A stretch of 64,000 nucleotides of DNA from Mobula hypostoma. Its lineage: Eukaryota. The position numbers and the translations under genes are program-made. Each line of letters starts with the position of its first letter. Position 1 is the stretch's first letter. Positions 5,001 through 55,365 of this stretch are shown here, one piece after another. The notes under the pieces are model-generated. The model had not been told where the DNA came from. It saw nothing but the letters and a program-made list of their open reading frames with translations, and did not search any database. Where the stretch lies: positions 24,242,001 to 24,306,000 of the forward strand of contig NC_086108.1 of assembly GCF_963921235.1 (NCBI RefSeq), written 5' to 3'.

Positions 5001-7491
5001 TTTCTCTTCAAACAGCCAGCATCATTAAACCTCACAAACTGCAACAATCTTAGTTGTTGTCTGGGACAATGGTTATGCCAGTCCAACTGGATCATCACTT
5101 TTGGATTAGGAAATGTAATAAATCAGAAATCAGATTGGATTCATTTTCCTGAGAACCATTTGGTGATCCAGCCATCCTATGCAAATGAACACCTCAGATG
5201 AAGTTTGCTTCAAAGATCTTCACAACTGGCTGAGCTCCTAATCATTTAGACCTGGACCAGCCCATTGAACAATGTTTTATGTTTGGGTGTCAGTTATTCC
5301 CTGTCAATCTGTACTCTCCTATGACTATGAACACACGGACACAGTAGGAGAAAAGTAGGAAAGGAAAAATATTAAGAACAAACACTGCACCAAGTTGAGT
5401 CTTATTTCTCTGAACTTCATGCCAGAACTCTTTCTTCCCCCTGAGCAACTATCCCTTAAATAATATTTGCTGCTAACTAAATGCATCCAGTGAATCAGCA
5501 ACAAGCTTTCAATTATTCATTTGGAACTGGTGGACCTATATTTCATTAAGTTTTCTCTACATTTTTAATAAAAGTGATGGAAGGAGGAAGAAGTTTGCTT
5601 TCTATAGTGTTCCAGCACACTGGAGAAGTTGATAGGAAAATCAAATAGAAGCTGAAAATGCTGTGCAAAGATATCAGTAAATCTTCAGCAAGCTGCACGG
5701 TTTATTTCAATGTGGCTGCCAACTTTGATGGGTATAAGGTACAGCCAGAGAGACTTGCCCTTCATCTGTATCTTTTTCCTACAACCATTTGTTATAGGTT
5801 CATCCAGAAATTTCAATTGCCTCCATCATGCTTTGATCGTAAACTTTGATTTAAGAAGACCAATAACAATTCCACCCAAGTGACTTCTGCACCATGCCTC
5901 AGAATGTGTTACACAATACATCACTGAGTGAGGAGCTGTCACTTTAACAAGGAATAGATCCTAGGGATTGGAGCTAACTTTAGCTATACAACTCCCTTAC
6001 AGACATGACAGGAATAGATTTCCAGATAGCAAAAGAAATGGTTGCCATTGCTATGGTATTAGGAGATTGATTGTCAACTGGATTGATAAGGGACCAAATG
6101 AAAAAATGCTTTGAGGAGGCAAGGGCATGACTACAGTACATCATATAGTGTTGCCCAATGAAGTGGACTTCCCAAGACCACTGTAAATGAAAGGGCTGTC
6201 AGGATATCATATGGGCTAAGATAACAGGAAAGAGCACTGTAGGTATAGAAAGGCTGCTGTACTTAACGAGGATGTCACCTTGAGTAGGTGGGATGGATCT
6301 GAGAGAAGAATAAAAATTGAAAAGGTGCTGGTTTCCATTTGCAAGAAATGCAACTGAATATATTATTAACCAGCAATTTCTGTGGATAATCATGGTAAAC
6401 TATCACCACAAACAATGAAGAGGCAAGCAAAAATGAGGCTGACGAGGGCCGAGATGTGTGGGTGCGATGCAAAATGGGAGTGAGGTCAAGGCACTTTCAT
6501 GGAGAAGTGGTTTGACTGAGGTCAACACATGTTTGAGATGGAGCTAACGCGAGCAGAACAGAGGAGTTTCGGAACCCATTCATCCAAACTGAGAGCGAGG
6601 TTGGATCAATCTACGTGCCGAGCCGATTAGGAAAGGCCTGGTACAGGTTGAACATGGCAGCAGGCACGGGCCCAGAGCATATCTTTACATGTCAGAGTTA
6701 ACTAAGATTCAAGGTTCAAAGTACATTTATTATCACAACAGGTAGAAATTGCACTTTGAAATTTGACTACTTATAGGCAGTCACAAAAAAAAAGAAACCC
6801 AAAGAGCCCAATTAAATTAAGACCAACACCCAATGTACAGAGAGAGAAAAAAAGACAAATCATCAGTGTTGGGGTACCTTTCAGAAATTGTAATGCTCGG
6901 CAAGACTAAGTTAAAATAAAGAAAGCTGATGTAGAAATGTTAAAACCAAGACTCATCTGACAAAGCTGAATTTTTTTCGATAAAATGCAGGAAGACAGTG
7001 CAATTGATGTTGTGCACATGGATGCTCACCGAAATTTTAATTAATGAACACGTCATTGCTTTGTTACTACAAAGGAAGTTCATGGAAGCAAAGTCTGGTT
7101 ACAAAGTTGGATATAGCTGTTCTAATATACTATATGACCAGTGATGAAAGGACAACATTTTGAGGTTTTTAAAAGAAACAAAATTGCCAAATATTGCAAA
7201 TAGTAAGGAAAAGAGCAAGATCGTTCAATGTAACATAGAAAAGTGTTGTGGAATTAGTGATAAGATTCTGACGTGCTACATTTTGGAAGGCAAAATGTGG
7301 AAAGAAAGTACGTGAGAGATGGTAGAGATTTTTCCAAAGGGATAGATGCAAGGTAACAGACACGTGGGGGTGCTTCAACATAATTATCCTCAAATATGTT
7401 CGAACGAGCCCCCACACAATGCTGTACATACACGCAACCGTAGACTAAACACAGCTCCAATGTAATCTTCAAATTCACCGATAACACTACT

Positions 7492-7914
7492 CAGTCAGTC
7501 AGTCAGTCAGTCGGTGCTATCTTGAATCCTGGGTTGGTGGCTATGCACCTCCAACTTCTTTGATCTCGTGACAGCACCGAGTACAGCCTGTCCTCCAGTT
7601 TGTTCTCGTTGGCCGCCTTGGCACCGCTCACTGCTGCCCCCGTCGAACTGCAGCCTGAGGCCGTATCGGCCTCCAGCCGCGGCCGCTTCTTCGAGCTCGG
7701 ACCTTCCTTAGGCGGAGGCCTTGGGCATGTCCAGGCACACGGTACAGCGCCCAAGTTCATCATGTCTATTCTAACTAAGTGCATAGCATACGATTCGTAG
7801 ATATGTGGTGAGGCTTTAATCTCTTCCACAGAAGATGGCCGTTGGCTCACAAGGATCTCATCCGCCCTTTGTCAGGTCTAGTTTTTTTAGTCCTGCTGGG
7901 TGTCCTCACACCCT
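7492..7914 (-). mobile_element. Short RTE-tailed retroposon (5'-truncated SINE or non-autonomous RTE) with (CTGA)n tail
   Basis: 12-bp TSD gataacactact at 7480-7491 and 7915-7926; (tcag)n at 7491-7511; removing the internal insert gives MMNLARDQRSWRCIATNP, resembling RTE C-termini. Confidence 0.75.
7571..7748 (-). pseudogene. ZFTRAF1: Circularly permuted 178-bp fragment of ZFTRAF1/CYHR1 N-terminal coding sequence
   Basis: 7712->7571 reads PKEGPSSKKRPRLE...[10 protein letters not shown] plus one T; 7748->7713 reads GC plus [11 protein letters not shown]. Joined, this gives [22 protein letters not shown], matching vertebrate CYHR1 [22 protein letters not shown] as I recall it. Confidence 0.85.
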
Positions 7915-10900
7915 GATAACACTACTATTGTTGGTTAAATCATAGGTGGCGATAAGTCAGATTTCCAGAATGAGTTCGATCTCTTGGTTGAATGATGCTG
8001 CAAGTGCAACCACTTATTCAATGTAAACAAATTTAGAGAGCAATTGTTGACTTCAGGATAGAAGTGGACGGTGAATATGCTTCAGTTTCATTTGGGGAAC
8101 TAGTGGTTGAGAGAATCAGCAGCTTTAAATTCCTGGATGTTAACATATTATATGATCTATCCTGAGCCCAGCACATAGATGCAATCATAAGAAAAGTAAA
8201 CTAGCATCTGTACTTCCTTAGGAGGTTTAGCTCTTCATTGAATACTCCAACAAACATCTACAGAGGCACTGTTGAAAGTATCCTTACTGGTTGCATCATG
8301 GTCCGGCCTGGCAATATGAATACAGTGGAAGATAAGAAACTGCAAAGAGTAGTGGACTATGGCCAAAACATCATGGGCACTTCCTACCCTACCACTGGTA
8401 GTATCTACAGAAGGCACTGTCTTAAGGAGGCAACATCTATCATCAAAGATCCCCATCATATGGGCCATACCATCTTTTCGCAGCTACCATCAGGCAGGAG
8501 GTACAGATCCTTAAGTCCCTCACTACCACTTTCAAGAACAGCTACTTCCCTTCAACCATTTGGTACTTGAACCAACCAACAAAACTCTAAGCACCACAAT
8601 TTAGCACTATGACCACTTTGCAGCTAAAATTGACATTTTTTTTCTGTTCCAGGGGTAAATTGTTCTTGTAAAAGTTGTTTATAATATATTTCAAATTAGT
8701 TTTTCTTGTGAGTGCTGCTTAAATGATGCTATGTTCCTAAAATGTTGCCACAACTATTTCAGTACACTCGTGCATGCATGTACTTGGGCGTATGAAACAA
8801 TCCACTTTGACAGCTTAACAAAGTTGGACAATAGGAATCTGGACTTGTAGTATGAAAGTTACGTCAAACCAACATAAAATACGAGATCAGCCCAGTTGCG
8901 GAAGTCTGTCTACAATATTTAAAGAAGAAAATGAATGCATTGTAATAGATTGAAATTTACTGCTTCGAGGGAAGATGGATTTCAGCTCTGGAGATAGCTA
9001 AGAAAACTGTCTTTATTTCCTCAAAGTTATGAAGGTTTAGAATCTTGAAGGGAGTGTTTAAAATCATAGAGCTTTATGTAGAATAAAGCTGGGAAATTGT
9101 TTCTAATACATGCAGAATCGATAACCAGATAGAACAGATTTAAGATGATCGATAAATGAACTAGACGCAAAAGGATTAATCAGACAATGCGTCGTTAGTA
9201 TTTCATATCTTTCTATCTGAACAATTTTATTTACTGAATTTATGGAGTTCCAAACTTAGCCATTAAACAACATTAATTTTATTAATAATTTTTCATTGCT
9301 CATAAAGCAATAAATGGCACTTCAGCCACAACTTGACCTCTTCTGCTTTAATTCTGCTTTCTAATCGTAAAATGTGGTACTCTGCATGTCTTGCCTGAGT
9401 GAATTCAATTGAAGCTGAGGTTTTGATTAAGAATCTCTACTTTATCATTAAAAAAGATTTTGATAACCATATAATTCCAGCAATTTTTGTTTCAATTTTT
9501 TTGTAGTTAACAGCATGATTTACGTTTATAGAATTCAAGTTGCCAAGCGACTGTCAGTTTGATAACTACTGCTTGATACAAGCAATGAAGTGGTAAAATA
9601 AGTAATTCATGTAGAAAATGTCTTTTTATATATATAATTACTCTAATAGTATAATGGGATACATTAAGGAATTTAAGTACACTTAAACTGGCTAGACCAG
9701 CAATGTAGGTAATGAGCTCTTAAACTGACCTACTTAGGTGAACAATTAGCAGATTTACCTTTGCAAAGTAGGGTATTAGACATCCATTTTTTGCTATTCA
9801 AGTAGGCAAACTGTGAGAACCACAAGACCCAGACTCTGGATTTTAGAATTATTTCCTTGGGTATCCAGAATGCAAATACACAAAGGACTCAATCCGTTAC
9901 TTGTAAGAGTAATTTGGAAATTTCCATTTGTTACATGGGTAGCAAAAAGGTTTCTTCCATCAAGGCACCAGTCTACTCTCACCCTCTCCTGAGGAGACAG
10001 ACTTTTGCTGGCTCCACAGGAACTGTCAACCTTCTTGTAACTCATCCAGGTAATGAGCTGAGAGTGTAGTTGGAGGAACATAGAAACAGCATCAGGTCCA
10101 TTCTTTCACAGGTCCATTTTCCTTTCTACTAAATCAGGGTTGCTCTGTACTTCAACACCTTTGATCTAACGTTGAAGTCATATCTCTACTTACCTGACAA
10201 CATTTGATCAGTCCCAGTTGACTCAGTGGTTAAACACTTCTGTTGGAGAGAACTCTTGTTTTCCTTTATCTTTTTCATGGAAGGTAGCTATATTTTAAAC
10301 CAGATTGTTCTGCACTCCTCTTTCTGAAGGTAACACTTCCTCTCGGTCCACTAGATTAAATCACTTCATTACTTTAAGCCCTTCATGCACATATTCTGAA
10401 ACTCAAGGGCTTTAGCAATCTGATTTTGCAAGTGAGTCTCAGGCAGTTGAATTTATGTGGCTGCATAAATATATTCTACCTGAGCAGCAGTGACTGAAGT
10501 TTAAGATACTGTACTTAAGAATTGGATGATTCATTCCTGCTGAACATTCCCAGTTTTCTCCATTATTTCAGATTTGCTGTACTGGGCCTCATTAAGTCCA
10601 ACAATGATTTTATTTCCTTTCTTTGGCTCTCATCAATGCCCCTCTTACTGACTATCTGCTACACATATCAACTATCTCTAATGACCATCCACTCTTAGAA
10701 CATCATTTGCATCAGCTGCATTCTCTTGTCCTGCACCTTCTCACACATATCCTTTTCACTCCCTCTGCAACTGGAAACAAGTTTGTTCTCTTTTTTTTTA
10801 GCTCCGATAGAAAGCCATCAACCTAAAACATGAATTCTGCTTTTCCCTTCTCAGATGCTGCAAGACCTACTGAAAATTAAATATTTTCTCTAAGACCATT

Positions 10901-34830: not shown

Positions 34831-37800
34831 TATGTGGTGGCATCCGTTAGTCTCGCGAGACTATGGATCTGCGCCTGGAAGGTCTTGCTTCAGTCTGTGT
34901 TAGAGCAGCGTCTGTTATGGCTGCAGAGGCCCACACGGGAGTGACAGTCTCGGCTGCAGTGACTGCACTTGAAGGCGCTGTCCTCCAGTGTTGTCTTGGT
35001 GCTGTTTTTCCGACGAGTGTGCTTTTCTTCAGCAGCAAGCCTCAGCTTTTCTTCTCCTCTTTTTAGACCTCTGAGTAGTTCCAGCCTCCAGTGAGAGCGA
35101 TCGCTTGCGATGTCCTCCCACCTCTCGACGTTCATTTTCAGTGACTTCATGTCTCTCTTGCAAACGTCTTTGAAACGAAGATGGGGCCGCCCTTGTGCTC
35201 TCTTGCTGGAGGCCAGTTCCCCATACAGCAGGTCTTTTGGGACCCTCCCATCGGACATGCAGTGTACGTGGCCCAGCCAGCGGAGACGGCATTGTTGGAG
35301 CAGGGTGAAGAGGCTGGGTATCTGGGTGTGGGCCAGGACCTCGTTGGTGACTCGGTCAATCCACGCGATGTCCAGGATGCGTCTCAGGCTGTGAAGGTGG
35401 AAGGCGTTGAGATGCCATTCTTGTCTGTAGTAGAGGCTCCAGGTCTCGCTGCCGTAAAGCAGTGTGCTGAGGATGCAGGCCCTGTAGACAGCAACTTTGG
35501 TGTGCATCGTCACCTTTCTGTTCTCCCAGACTCTCTTTCTCAGCCTGGCGAATGTCGAGACTGCTCGTCCGATCCATCTGTTGATCTCGGGGTCTAGGGA
35601 GAGGCTGTCCGTGATGGTGGAGCCAAGTAAGGTATGTAAACTCGTGAACTATCCCCAGCTCGTAGTTGTTGATGGTAATGACAGTGGGGTGCTCAGTGCC
35701 TTGGCCCAACACATTGGTTTTCTTCAGGCTGATGGTCAAGCTGGAGTCCTGGCAGGCTCTTGAGAAGCTGTCCATGAGGTGCTGCAGTTGCTCTTCAGAG
35801 TGTGTTGCCAGTGCCGTATCGTCTGTAAATAACATGTCCCTGATGAGTACTTCACGAACCTTGCTTTTCGCCCTTAGCCGGGACAGACTGAGCAGCCTCC
35901 CGTCCAATATGGTGTGGAGGTAGACACCATCAGTTGATGTTCCAAAGGCGTGCTTCAGCATGACTTCGAAGAAGATGCCAAACAGGGTGGGGGCAAGCAC
36001 ACAGCCCTGCTTTACACCGCTGCGGATGTTGAAGGTCTCCGATGAAGAGCCGTCGAACTGAATGACACCCTTCATGTCTGTGTGGAATGACTGAACTATC
36101 CTGAGGAGCCTCGGGGGACAACCAATCCTGGCGAGGATTTTGAACAGGCCGTCTCTGCTCACAAGGTCGAAAGCCTTCATAAGGTCAATAAAAGCGACGT
36201 AGAGTGGTTGTCTTTGCTCTCTGCATTTCTCTTGTGGCTGTCGAAAGGAGAAGATCATGTCGATTGTGGAGTGTTCTGATCTGAAACCGCACTGAGACTT
36301 GGGATATACCTTTTCAGCTATTTTCTGCAGTCTGTTCAGGGCGAAGACCTTCCCAACATAACTCAGCAAGGAGATTCCCCTGTAGCTGTTACAGTCGCTT
36401 CTGTTCCCTATATGGTGACAATATTGCAGTCTCTCATGTCTTGCGGCACTGCTCCCTCTATCCAGCACTGGCACAGTAGTTTGTGCAGATGGTTTTGCAG
36501 GACGCCCTTTGCGCATTTGATGGCCTCTGGTGGAATGCCATCCAATCCTGGTGCCTTCCCAGTGGGCAGGCTGTCAATGGCTTTACTCAGCTCTTCGGCA
36601 GTTGGCAATGCATCAAATTCCTCCATGACAGGCAGGCATTCCACGGTATCTAGCGTGCTGTCCGAGATGCTGTTTTTTCTGGAGAAGAGTTCAGAGTAAG
36701 GCTCCACCCATCTCTCCATCTGCTTGCCTTTGTCATTGATGGTCTCACCTGTTATGGTTTTCAATGGTGCTGTCTTGCTCTGGGTTGGCCCGATGGCTTT
36801 CTTGATCCCCTCGTACACTCCATGGATGTTGCCTGTGTCTAATGATGACTGAATGCATTCACATAGTTGTAGCCAGTAGTCATTTGCACAGCGTCTGGCT
36901 GTTTCCTGGGCCTTGCTTCTTGCTGTCCTTAGCGCTTGCAGTGTTGCCTGGGTGGGGTGGTGTTTGTGCTCTAGTAGTGCAACACGCTTCACCTCGATGA
37001 TAGTGGTGAGCTCACTTGAGCTCGCTTCAAACCAGTCCTGTGTCTTGCCCTGTTTCTTCCCAATGGCCTTGAGTGCAGTGCTGTGGATAGTGTCCCTGAG
37101 AGAGTCCCATCTTTGCTGAGCATCGCCTTCTGGTGGGTCTGCAAGGAGAGCATCCTCCAGTGACTTGAACTCCGCAGCTTTGTCTGGGTGTTGTGTTTTA
37201 CTGGCATCGATGCGCTGCTTGCCTGGAGGCTTGGCGCAGTGCATCTTCTTCGGCCGAAGTCTGATCTTGCAGCAAACCAGAGAGTGATCCGTGTCGCAGT
37301 CGGCACTCTGAAAGGAGTGAGTCATGAGCACGTTTCTCAGGTGATGGCGTCTTGTGATTATCAGGTCTAGCTGGTGCCAGTGTTTGGAGCGGGGATGCTG
37401 CCAAAACACTTTGTGCTGAGCTTTGGTCTGGAAGTAGGTGTTGGTGACACACAATTCGTGGAGCATGCAAAGCTCGAGCAGTCGTTGCCCGTTGTCATTC
37501 ATGCTACCAATCCCATACTGCCCCAGGCAGATTGGCCAGGAGTCGTGCTCAGCGCCCACTCTGGCGTTGAAGTCACCAAGTAGCAGCAACTGTTCCTGAC
37601 TTGGGATCTCCTGTATCATTGAGAGCTGGTCGTAGAACTCATTCTTTGCGTCTTGTGTAGAGTAACGGGTTGGGGCATAGACGTTGACAAGATTGACAGG
37701 CCCATCAGATGTGTGGAGTCGAAGTGAGAAAATCCGCTCTGTCCCTTTCTTACTAGGCCCTACCATCTTCAGCAACGAGTTCTTCATGGCAAAGCCGACA

Positions 37801-38669
37801 CCATGCTCTCTGGTCTCGTCTGAGCCCTTCCCCTGCCAGAAGAAGGTATAGTCTCTTTCACGTAGGGGTCCTGATTCTGCGAGATGTGTCTCTTGGAGTG
37901 TTGCGATGTCCACTTGGAGTCTCGACAGTTCACTGTTAATCACTGCTGTTTTGCGAGTGTCACTGATCTCCCAAAGGTCATCTGATATGCCAGTTGTCAT
38001 GGTCCGTATATTCCAGCATCCTAGTCTGAGTGCTGGCTTCTTTCTTTGTCTTCTAGTTGTGCTTGGCGCAGCGTTTACAGTCTGCAGTTCGGGCTACTTG
38101 TATCCCTAAGCCCCACACACTCAGTGGAGCGGGCGGACTGTGGCAGGACAGCACCTAATTGGCTGGGGGCTGCCCAGTTTGAGGTGGGTGGTAGCTGTCC
38201 AGTGAGACGCGATGGTCTCTCCCTCCGTCGAAAGCAACCCCTGGTGCCTTGCTCTACGCCAGTCGATCGCAGGCTTATAACCGGTAGACTGCTGCTTTCC
38301 GTGTTGTGCCGTCGCAGTGAGGCGACGCTGGAGTGTCCTCTCCAGGGCGCAGGCCTGGGCAAGGTTGTATGGAAGACCGGCAATTGCCCATGCTGCAAGT
38401 CTCCCCTCTCCACAACACCGATGTTATCCAAGGGAAGGGCAAGGGCCGATACAGACTGGCACCAGTGTCATCGCAGGAGTTGCCAGAACGAGGTTGAAGC
38501 CAATGTCGGACTGCCTTAGGGACTCCAGCTCCGGATTTGTCCTCAGGGTTTACTCCCAAAGCCTTTCCCATCAGTGGGTATGGCCACAAGGAAGCCAAGG
38601 TTTGAAATCAGAGTTTTCCCTCTCTTAGATGGACTGCCTTCCCAGGCTGGCGAGCTCCATCTACCCGAA
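34831..38669 (-). mobile_element. Full-length RTE-clade LINE
   Basis: 10-bp TSD atttattatc at 34821-34830 and 38670-38679; long 5' UTR followed by a single APE-RT ORF. Confidence 0.93.
34890..38000 (-). pseudogene. RTE APE endonuclease-reverse transcriptase ORF, disrupted by frameshifts near 36410 and 35630
   Basis: APE motifs (W)NIRTM, LQETH, VYAPT, LLGDFNARVG, TDHSLV; RT motifs YRGISLL, FIDLMKAFD, GVKQGCVLAPTLF, LFTDD; C-terminal LRWLGHV and FKCSHCSRDCHSRVGLCSH. Confidence 0.9.
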
Positions 38670-46207: not shown

Positions 46208-46793
46208 AAGAATGAAAGATGGGGAAGGATTTGAAGAATGCTTGTAGCGTCAGTTGAAAGACTAGTAATTTGAAAGACAAAGGGGTGGGGGAGGGGAAGC
46301 ATTGACATCATAGCCCTTGAAAACAATGGGTAGTAGAAGAAGGAGGCGGAACCATGAGGGAGCTGGGGGAAGGGGTAGAGTGAAATAGGGATAGAGGAAG
46401 GGAAGGGGAGGGAATTACCAGAAGTTGGAGAATTCTATGTTCATACCAAGGGGCTGGAGACTATCTAGACAGTATATGAGGTGTTGCTCCTCCAACCTGA
46501 GTTTAGCCTCAGAGGAGGCCATGTATGGACATATCTGAATGGGGAATGGGAAGCAGAGTTGAAGTGGGTGGCTACTGGGAGATCCTGTCTGTTGTGGCGG
46601 ACGGAGTGGAGGTGCTCGACGAAGCGGTCCCCCAATCTGCGTCGGGTTTCACTGATGTAGAGGGGGCCACACCGGGAGCACTGGATGCAATAGATGACCC
46701 CAACAGACTCACAAGTGAAGTGTTCTCACCTGGAAGGACTGTTTGGGGCCCTGAATGGTTGCAAGAGATGAGGTGTAGGGACCGGTGTAGCAA

Positions 46794-47852
46794 TTAACGC
46801 CTACAGGGATAAGTGCCGGGTGGGAGATCAGTGGGGATGGACGTGCGGATAAGGGAGTCACGGAGGGATCGATCCCTGAGGAAAGTGGAGAGGGGCGGAG
46901 AAGGAAAAATGTGCTTAGTGTTGGGGTCCTGTTGAAGGTGGCAGAAGTTGTGGAGGATAATGTGCTGGATCCGGATGGTGGTGGGGTGGTAGGTAAGGAC
47001 AAGGGGAACTCTGTCCCTGTTGTGGTTGCAGGAGGATGGGGTGAGGGCCAAAGTGCGGGAAATGGAGGAGATGCGGGTGAGGGCATCCTTGATGACGGTA
47101 GAAGGGAAACAACGATCCTTAAAGAAAGAGGACATTTGAGATGTCCTGGAATGGAAAGCCTCATCCTGGGAGCAGATGCAGCGGAGACGGAGGAACTGGG
47201 AATAGGGAATGGCATTTTTGCATGTGGCGGGGTGGGAAGAGGTATAGTCGAGGTAGTTATGAGAGTCAGTAGGCTTGTAGAAGATGTCAGTGGACAGTCT
47301 GTCTCCAGAGATGGAGACCGAGACATCGAGAAAGGGGAGAGAAGTGTCCGAGATTTGAATTTGAGGGCTGGTGGAAGTTTGAAGTAAAGTCGATGAATTG
47401 ACGAGCTCAGCATGGGTGCAGGAAGCAGCACCAATGTAGTCGTCAATGTACTGAAGGAAAGGTTGGGGAGCAGTACCAGAATAGGTTTTGAGCACAGACT
47501 GTTCCACATAACCAATGAATAGGCAGGCGTAGCTGGGTCCCATGCTAGTTCCCATAGCTACACCCTTAGTCTGAAGAAAGTGGGAAGAGCCAAAAGAGAA
47601 GTTATTAAGTGTGAGAACCAGTTCCGCCAACCGGAGGAGAGTAGTGGTGGTGGGGAACTGGTGAGGTCTATTATCCAGGAAGTAGCGGAGGGCTTTGAGG
47701 CCATCTTGATGGGGAATGGAGGTGTATAAGGATTGGACATCCATAGTAAAAGTGTAGCGGCTGGGACTGGGGAATTGGAAGTTATTGAAGAGGTTGAGGG
47801 CATGGGATGTATCGTGGATGTAGGTGGAGAGGGACTGAGCTATGGGTGACAA
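46794..47852 (-). pseudogene. PLE reverse transcriptase fragment
   Basis: FTMDVQSLYTSIPH, QTKGVAMGTSMGPSYA, YIDD, LPFLDV, KPTD..NYLDYTSSHP, IPYSQFLRL. Confidence 0.9.
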
Positions 47853-48044
47853 AATGGAGTCCAGGTAGGCAGATACAAGTTCGGTGGGACAGGAGTAGGC
47901 AGAAACTATGGGTATACCGGGACAGTTAGGCTTGTTTATCTTTGGGAGGAGGTAAAACTGAGTGGTACGGGGTGTGGGAATAATGAGTTTAGCAGCTGAG
48001 GATGGAAGGTCTCCAGAGTTGATAAGGGTTGAAGAAGAGTTGAC

Positions 48045-49185
48045 CCAGCTATGCCTGCCTCTTTGTTGGTTATGTGGAACAGTCTGTACTCAAAACCTAT
48101 TCTGGTACTGCTCCTCAACTTTTCCTTCGGTACATTGACGACTACATTGGTGCTGTTTTCTGCATCCATGCTGAGCTCATCAATTTCATCGACTTTACTT
48201 CAAACTTCCACCCAGCCCTCAAATTCACTTCCTCTATCTCAGACACCTCTCCCCCTTTCTCGATGTTTCAGTCTCCATCTCTGGAGACAGACTGCCCACT
48301 GACATCTTCTACAAGCCCACTGACTCTCATAACTACCTCGACTATACCTCTTCCCACCCCGCCACATGCAAAAATGCCATTCCCTATTCCCAGTTCCTCC
48401 GTCTCCGCCGCATCCGCTCCGAGGATGAGGCTTTCCATTCCAGGACATCTCAAATGTCCTCTTTCTTTCAGGATCGTGGTTTCCCTTCTACTGCCATCAA
48501 GGATGCCCTCACCCGCATCTCCTCCATTTCCCGCACTTCGGCTCTCACCCCATCCTCCCGCCACCACAACAGGGACAGAGTTCCCCTTGTCCTCACCTAC
48601 CACTCCACTAGCATCCGGATCCAGCACATTATCCTCCGCAACTTCTGCCACCTTCAACAGGACCCCACCACTAAGCACATCTTTTCCTCTCCACCCCTCT
48701 CCGCTTTACTCAGGGATCGATCCCTCCGCGACTCCCTTATCCACATGTCCATCCCCACTGATCTCCCACCCGGTACTTATCCCTGTAAGTGTTAAGTGCT
48801 ACACCTGTCCCTACACCTCATCTCTTGCAACCATTCAGGGCCCCAAACAGTCCTTCCAGGTGAGACAACACTTCACTTGTGAGTCTGTTGGGGTCATCTA
48901 TTGCATCCGGTGCTCCTGGTGTGGACTCCTCTACATCGGTGAAACCCAACGCAGATTGGGGGACCGCTTCGTCGAGCACCTCCACTCCGTCCGCCACAAC
49001 AGACAGGATCTCCCAGTAGCCACCCACTTCAACTCTGCTTCCCATTCCCATTCAGTACGTCCATACATGGCCTCCTCTACTGCCATGATGAGGCTAAACT
49101 CAGGTTGGAGGAGCAACACCTCATATACCGTCTAGGTAGTCTCCAGCCCCTTGGTATGAACATAGAGTTCTCCAACTTCCGGTAA
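48045..49185 (+). pseudogene. PLE RT C-terminus and GIY-YIG endonuclease, frameshifted
   Basis: FLRYIDDYIG; FTCESVGVIYCIRCSWCGLLYIGETQRRLGDRFVEHL. Confidence 0.9.
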
Positions 49186-55024: not shown

Positions 55025-55365
55025 TTTAAAGGTTCTGGGAGAAGGTTCAGGAGCTTGAAGACTCGTACGGCCAGATTTGGGAACAGCTTCTTTCCAACTG
55101 TGATAAGACTGCTGAATGGATCCTGACCCAGATCTGGGCCATACCTTCCAAATATCCAGACCTACCTCTTGGTTTTTTTGCACTACCTTACTTCCCATTT
55201 TTCTATTTTCTATTTATGATTTATAATTTAAATTTTTAATATTTACTAATTTTAACTATTTTTAATATCTTTAATATTTAATATTTGTAATCCAGGGAGT
55301 GTGATGATTGTATGTTCTAGTACCAATTGTTTGGCGACAATGAAGTATAAAGTAAAATAAAATAC
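55025..55365 (+). mobile_element. Rex1/Babar 3' end
   Basis: SGRRFRSLKTRTARFGNSFFPTVIRLLN followed by an AT-rich UTR. Confidence 0.75.

Follow-up and report, generated by a model that had tools for sequence, protein, structure and literature searches.

Non-autonomous derivatives of RTE LINEs that are built in two parts are common (PMC5786205, PMC7245038). According to Kojima (2018, PMC5786205; 2020, PMC7245038), elements such as Bov-A, RTESINE1/2, WALLSI3 and MAR4_MD join an RTE 5' part to the extreme 3' end, end in a microsatellite tail and have no ORF; a partner LINE resides in the same genome, and some bird SINEs have an added GC-rich head. Exon sequence in altered order has been described elsewhere. 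CircRNA-derived pseudogenes, for instance the 33 mouse copies of circRFWD2 (Dong et al. 2016, PMC4897178), carry exon sequence in reversed order without poly(A), occur in many copies and are tied to retroelements; their joints are exact exon-exon back-splices across several internal exons and their flanks are LTR-rich. Germline insertions of eccDNA, as outlined in a preprint (bioRxiv 10.64898/2026.09.03.749254), follow an AB-to-BA order in which one cyclic shift fully covers a single source interval, and they are single and mostly local. LINE template jumps and mRNA/LINE chimeras, finally, fuse sense host RNA of first-exon origin, with a long next intron, to a LINE (PMC13174262, PMC2104539, PMC3414825); some of these founded a subfamily of their own, with the host piece 5' and colinear.

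The locus described here lies in a 64,000-nt stretch of DNA (the window) and compares in part with each of these systems. It has the 5' part, extreme 3' end, microsatellite tail and lack of an ORF of the bipartite RTE elements, together with a partner LINE in the same genome and an added GC-rich head. Unlike them, it holds a permuted piece of a host coding exon at the deletion point, and its head is a fold-back derived partly from an inverted RTE 5' UTR and not from tRNA, 5S or 7SL. The reversed exon order, missing poly(A), many copies and retroelement tie are shared with circRNA pseudogenes, whereas the piece here lies within a single first exon, its joint lacks 2 nt of a back-splice, and it is carried by an RTE LINE derivative. 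As in eccDNA insertions, a single source interval is fully covered after one cyclic shift, but here the insert sits inside a retroposon that multiplied it. As in the mRNA/LINE chimeras, a sense host piece from a first exon followed by a long intron is fused to a LINE, but it is internal and rotated. SVA_F1 with MAST2 exon 1 is a comparable LINE-related host-exon chimera, its host piece being 5' and colinear. The kind of carrier is thus already known, as is rotated exon sequence, from circRNA pseudogenes and eccDNA insertions. Literature searches that were not sharp and ran outside Repbase, Dfam and supplements turned up no RTE derivative with a rotated first-exon piece as its internal module, and a loose term match, a weak test, gave no mention of CYHR1/ZFTRAF1 among the papers listed.

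The window copy occupies positions 7914-7492 on the minus strand and is the sole family copy within the window. It is flanked by an exact 12-bp TSD, whose 5' copy (7915..7926) is repeated without change in the 3' copy (7480..7491). The copy opens with the 5' part of an RTE-clade LINE (7749..7914), which runs from the 5' UTR into the start of the frame, shows 86-89% identity to three full-length elements (L066, L068 and L069) and carries two family-wide deletions of 7 nt and 10 nt. Block B follows (7709..7748), 40 nt from the 3' part of ZFTRAF1 exon 1 that end 4 nt short of the splice donor (parent G000:C5:228091045-228091006), and then block A (7571..7708), a 138-nt coding stretch that begins with AG and lies immediately 5' of B in the parent (G000:C5:228091183-228091046). 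The copy closes with the final ~70 nt of the RTE LINE, followed by its (GACT)n tail (7492..7570); over 60 nt of this part, the family majority is the majority of 23 RTE 3' ends. The copy is 5'-truncated and has no hairpin head, and 161 of the 178 positions of its exon-derived block are identical to the parent. We conclude from this anatomy that a bipartite non-autonomous RTE retroposon left a 5'-truncated copy at the window locus, and that target-primed reverse transcription (TPRT) with the proteins of a co-resident 3.25-kb RTE LINE put it there (probability about 0.97). The insert as a working coding exon in place was also considered and ruled out, both by its arrangement, in which B and A are out of frame with each other, and by its family-wide differences from the parent, which are decay at CpG sites.

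A first-pass annotation of the window had recognized a circularly permuted ZFTRAF1/CYHR1 fragment here, and much of what it described stands. Both blocks were located on the minus strand where it had placed them, the A-then-B order gives a single open frame encoding the peptide it quoted, and the stretch is CpG-rich (17 CpG in 7601-7800, against ~1.3 per 100 bases across the window). The circular permutation is real and exact. The proposed block sizes of 36 and 142 nt had to be adjusted, the B|A boundary lying 4 nt further on (B, 7748-7709; A, 7708-7571), and the two extra bases (gc) seen at one junction are the end of the RTE 5' part and not filler. A TSD had been reported as missing; the 12-bp repeat at 7915-7926 and 7480-7491 flanks the whole element, together with the (GACT)n tail. 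The annotation went on to propose that a microDNA circle had been captured by end joining at this very site, a one-off insertion with an empty allele (aacttgg|cacgag) to be sought in related species. This proposal does not hold for the locus. The supposed flanks are mobile-element parts in every copy that extends to them (53 of 54 at each side), and instead of a single insertion there are hundreds of copies; the locus is one of ~800 that were mobilized by RTE, with tail, 5' truncation and TSD.

A first look with the 178-bp block gave 922 candidates in genome G000, and among the best 40 of these, which were scored, all spanned the block at 90-100% (39 over bases 1-178 and one over bases 2-178). 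An 18-base probe across the B|A joint had 313 exact matches genome-wide (control, 0). Since 9 of 23 copies that had been found without the joint probe match it, the family comprises ~800 copies; a divergence-based estimate gave 760-1100. In an alignment of 54 distinct copies, 30 of them chosen via the existing joint and 24 not, the shared structure is ~570 bp long with a common 3' end and with 5' starts that vary from position 1 to 323. From 5' to 3' it consists of a hairpin head, the RTE LINE 5' part, B, A, the last ~70 nt of RTE and the (GACT)n tail. A TSD of at least 8 nt was present in 17 of 52 copies, as against 5 of 2652 mismatched flank pairs, the test leaving out L084 (3'-truncated) and L020 (the query), so that the tail, the variable 5' truncation and the TSD, the marks of TPRT, are all found in the family. 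Divergence from the majority amounts to 3.0% at non-CpG and 18% at CpG sites, values that understate the age because the aligned copies were chosen by best score or exact probes. The family majority differs from the parent at three fixed positions of the 178-nt block (175/178 identical). The window site is therefore an ordinary copy, and the capture of the exon happened once, in the founder of the element. Near-identical pairs of family copies were observed on C45 (L012/L013) and C12 (L103/L104); L012 and L013 share their flanks, and hence some copies stem from segmental duplication rather than from new insertion.

The partner LINE was sought with a tail probe that carried a different preceding base, which gave 166 matches, from which 30 loci were retrieved. 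RTE LINE sequence lay upstream in 26 of them, three were family copies and one consisted of the tail only. Three of four extended loci proved to be full-length, ~3.25 kb with one long frame, and the domains found are endonuclease and reverse transcriptase (PF03372, PF14529, PF00078). By size, layout and tail this LINE is marked as a putative member of the RTE clade; a C-terminal motif characteristic of the clade also lies behind the assignment. Family and LINE share ~240 nt in the 5' region as well as the final ~70 nt, the latter identical at the majority level, while ~2.9 kb are replaced by the insert. Divergence among 23 LINE 3' ends (2.1%, likewise non-CpG) is close to the 3.0% of the family at non-CpG sites, which implies that both were active at about the same time. 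An empty element, with the RTE 5' part 5-35 nt from the tail, had no match in the genome, and the nine matches of a family-type 5' part followed by a base other than the first of the insert were all ordinary family copies. Nor was a SINE-type Pol III head (tRNA, 5S or 7SL) recovered by Rfam on copy L020, where the best score was 19.6 bits against a threshold of 40 that no hit reached.

For the parent, we searched genome-wide with a probe made of the end of A plus the next base expected in the parent. Its two matches were a mutated family copy (L023) and a CpG-island exon (L024; G000:C5, minus strand), in which A passes directly into B and then on to a splice donor. The exon ends at 228091002 on G000:C5, and intron 1 is 91,110 nt long. 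The peptide of exon 2 shows 99% identity to the ZFTRAF1/CYHR1 of skate and sawfish, the best-matching among 523 matches, and that of exon 1 is 78% identical to the sawfish protein P0009 over 85 aa; by these matches the parent is identified as ZFTRAF1/CYHR1, the gene that the first-pass annotation had named. The same matches suggest that the host is a cartilaginous fish, probably a batoid. Its forecast that A and B would be found contiguous and in that order in one ZFTRAF1 locus was borne out, in exon 1, and the join of A to B, described as free of lost or doubled bases, is just so in the parent exon. The 47-aa peptide of block A by itself was uninformative in protein searches (0 of 26 candidates at E<=1; a single, low-complexity match, P0002, among representative proteins). 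The source stretch is CpG-rich and about one nucleosome long, and no family copy was found in the 110 kb around parent exon 1. In L024, a good-looking internal acceptor (CAG, pyrimidine-rich, 16 pyrimidines) precedes block A by 24 nt; with it, a genuine intra-exon back-splice in ZFTRAF1 exon 1 could be possible.

The insert has three joints. Those with RTE (RTE|B and A|RTE) are blunt, with no shared and no added bases. In the parent, B starts at the base right after the end of A, 138 and 40 nt without gap or overlap, a single cyclic shift; from this exact match we infer a template with one cut, because nothing would have made a reverse transcriptase that left an intact circle, or one that jumped freely, halt just where it had entered. 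The B|A joint brings together the end of B, 4 nt before the exon-1 donor, and the AG with which A opens. The joint may be blunt as it stands, or it may derive from a donor-to-AG back-splice or a 3-base microhomology joint with a later loss of 2 nt; it has no shared bases in its present form, and three only if the 2 nt were lost afterwards. The founder lost 7 nt and 10 nt elsewhere, which makes such a loss not far-fetched. A clean back-splice joint was seen in none of the 54 aligned copies, all of which are 2 nt short (one with a larger deletion there), and genome-wide, probes with 1-3 extra bases at the joint had no match. As an acceptor, the AG that opens A is poor (GAG, with 9 pyrimidines and one T in 20 nt) by comparison with that of exon 2 (CAG, with 14 pyrimidines and 7 T), and the better CAG 24 nt upstream, with its 16 pyrimidines, was left unused. 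The hallmark of circRNA pseudogenes, a joint running exactly from splice donor to acceptor, is hence absent, while their reversed exon order from one parent is present.

The founding capture is not firmly assignable to RNA or DNA, although the window site is a real, exact and ordinary copy. A circle-like template, the core of the earlier proposal, is still the simplest reading for a single founding event, even if not for the window locus. We give an even chance to an RNA circle that was opened and copied by RTE template jumps. A circle of ~180 nt from the 3' part of ZFTRAF1 exon 1 would have formed while the donor waited across the 91-kb intron, either through ligation of a fragment or through a back-splice to the weak AG in the same exon with subsequent loss of 2 nt, and a single cut at the A/B point would then have opened it. 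Starting on a broken RTE RNA, the RTE reverse transcriptase would have copied its last 70 nt before switching to the 3' end of the opened circle, which it would have read through to the other end; a second jump would have taken it onto a 5' piece of RTE RNA. Having both RTE ends, the product could be transcribed and recognized anew, and so spread. A circular RNA had been mentioned in the first-pass annotation as an alternative, and three features lean that way rather than to a DNA template: the insert is wholly exonic, it is in sense orientation to RTE, and its right edge lies 4 nt from the donor of the 91,110-nt intron. LINE/mRNA chimeras that end at donors are tied to long introns, with a median following intron of 48 kb for mRNA/LINE-1 (PMC13174262). 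Template jumping needs 0-2 base pairs, and non-LTR reverse transcriptases jump end to end (10.1101/2021.04.30.442027), which fits the two RTE borders, where the joints are blunt and share no bases; double jumps have yielded three-part chimeras in vivo (PMC2104539). Against an RNA circle, the clean back-splice joint is absent from all copies, the AG acceptor is weak and a better CAG was bypassed. Moreover, blunt joints with no untemplated bases fit DNA end joining equally well, and for R2 deletion elements DNA recombination was favoured over jumps (PMC3414825). A DNA-level insert has been amplified at at least two sites in the same RTE family (L037 and L040), and neither an intermediate nor an empty form survives, so that the order of events was not observed.

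The founding template may instead have been a 178-bp DNA circle (microDNA) from the CpG-island exon, opened once, joined by NHEJ into a broken RTE copy that lost ~2.9 kb and then spread; this shifts the mechanism of the first-pass annotation to the founder, and we hold it possible but less likely. The AB-to-BA order is the signature of eccDNA insertions in the preprint cited (bioRxiv 10.64898/2026.09.03.749254), the three joints can be read as blunt, without templated or added bases, the source is CpG-rich and about as long as one nucleosome, and inserts made at the DNA level were amplified in this RTE (L037, L040). A DNA circle would, however, owe to luck both its sense orientation and the closeness of its edge to the donor, 4 nt (a rough chance of 1-4%, our own post hoc estimate), and it requires a large deletion at the same time. 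In the same preprint, 80 of 82 eccDNA insertions stayed on the chromosome of their source, 78 of 80 of them within 10 Mb, whereas no family copy occurs in the 110 kb around exon 1 and none of the 11 exact-probe matches listed on C5 falls within 10 Mb, the latter a weak point since the probe detects ~4 in 10 copies. We consider it improbable that no circle was involved and that a single cut left exon-1 RNA as two linear pieces, taken up by three jumps (RTE tail to A, A to B, B to RTE 5' part) or ligated in this order beforehand. The single cut would account for the end of A being the start of B, a free 3' end of exon 1 near the donor would supply the end of B, and serial end-to-end jumping over many templates by a non-LTR reverse transcriptase has been described in vitro (10.1101/2021.04.30.442027); yet both halves of one cut must be taken in turn, with one jump more than for an opened circle, and sequence alone does not separate the two. 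An assembly artefact, which the first-pass annotation had named as a possible undoing of its reading, or a chance rearrangement at the window locus is practically out of the question, since the joint recurs in 313 exact copies that are spread over many contigs and independent in their flanks and divergence.

As for the amplified DNA-level insert, L037 and L040 (G000:C2, 23.09 Mb and 25.19 Mb) are RTE copies at different sites that share a ~340-nt stretch of another repeat, inserted ~60 nt upstream of the last 70 nt and 84% identical to window positions 55038-55356; they are a second chimeric RTE form, itself retrotransposed, and show an insert made in DNA amplified to at least two sites.

Full-length family copies start with a fold-back of ~125 nt (for example L017:1494-1621, minus strand), and all 12 loci retrieved by this head carry the insert, with L011 repeating L009 and L013 duplicating L012. 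In copy L017 the head folds at -83.1 kcal/mol (z -6.3; none of 200 shuffles as good), while the opposite strand gives -48.7. Both outer arms of the head derive from a stretch of the LINE 5' UTR, copied directly in one arm and inverted in the other. The inverted arm differs from the closest LINE copy (L066) by four changes, all A to G, and the direct arm from the LINE by one added base and five A-to-G changes, of which one falls at a site that is G in L066; counted against the closest copy or the majority, the arms and their RTE source show eight differences, all A to G on the sense strand, while changes in the remaining RTE 5' part are mixed. The paired stem contains 4 A and 19 T, where the remainder of the RTE 5' part has 58 A and 37 T; the stem's pairs include 15 G-U and 4 A-U, with the G state fixed across copies. 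With three LINE copies as outgroup, the pattern resembles ADAR editing that took place in the founder RNA and was then copied into DNA. A genome search for the source or an unedited form of the head gave four matches, all family copies, without a source for the inner ~70 nt, and the head had no match in the 110 kb around the parent exon. Along with the opened RNA circle we suppose that the head was gained somewhere along the way, its stem edited A to I and the result fixed by reverse transcription. The whole sequence of events, a small first-exon circular RNA opened and caught between RTE ends by two jumps to found a ~800-copy family whose head froze ADAR hyper-editing in DNA, is offered tentatively.

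In this mobile family a circular piece of a host coding exon has become a fixed module; it is a clean fossil of one way in which bipartite RTE elements can originate and incorporate sequence from their host. Were the first-exon circRNA reading true, it would offer a concrete route for circular-RNA retrotransposition, by a LINE and outside mammals, a matter left open by Dong et al. (PMC4897178). About 800 near-copies of exon 1 of a live gene, sense or antisense, might hypothetically feed small-RNA or methylation effects on ZFTRAF1, and for that exon both read mapping and the calling of circRNAs will be confounded by them. A rotated exon at a single locus also calls for a copy-number check before it is labelled an eccDNA insertion.

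Other retroelements were observed in passing. One RTE copy on G000:C2 (L067), where L066 also lies, has a ~515-nt 5' inversion of twin-priming-like appearance. Within the window, positions 34890-38093 (minus strand) hold a second, different RTE-like LINE, nearly full-length, with long open frames and without a DNA match to the partner LINE, and positions 46709-49135 hold two inverted copies of a reverse-transcriptase element, which we presume to be Penelope-like.
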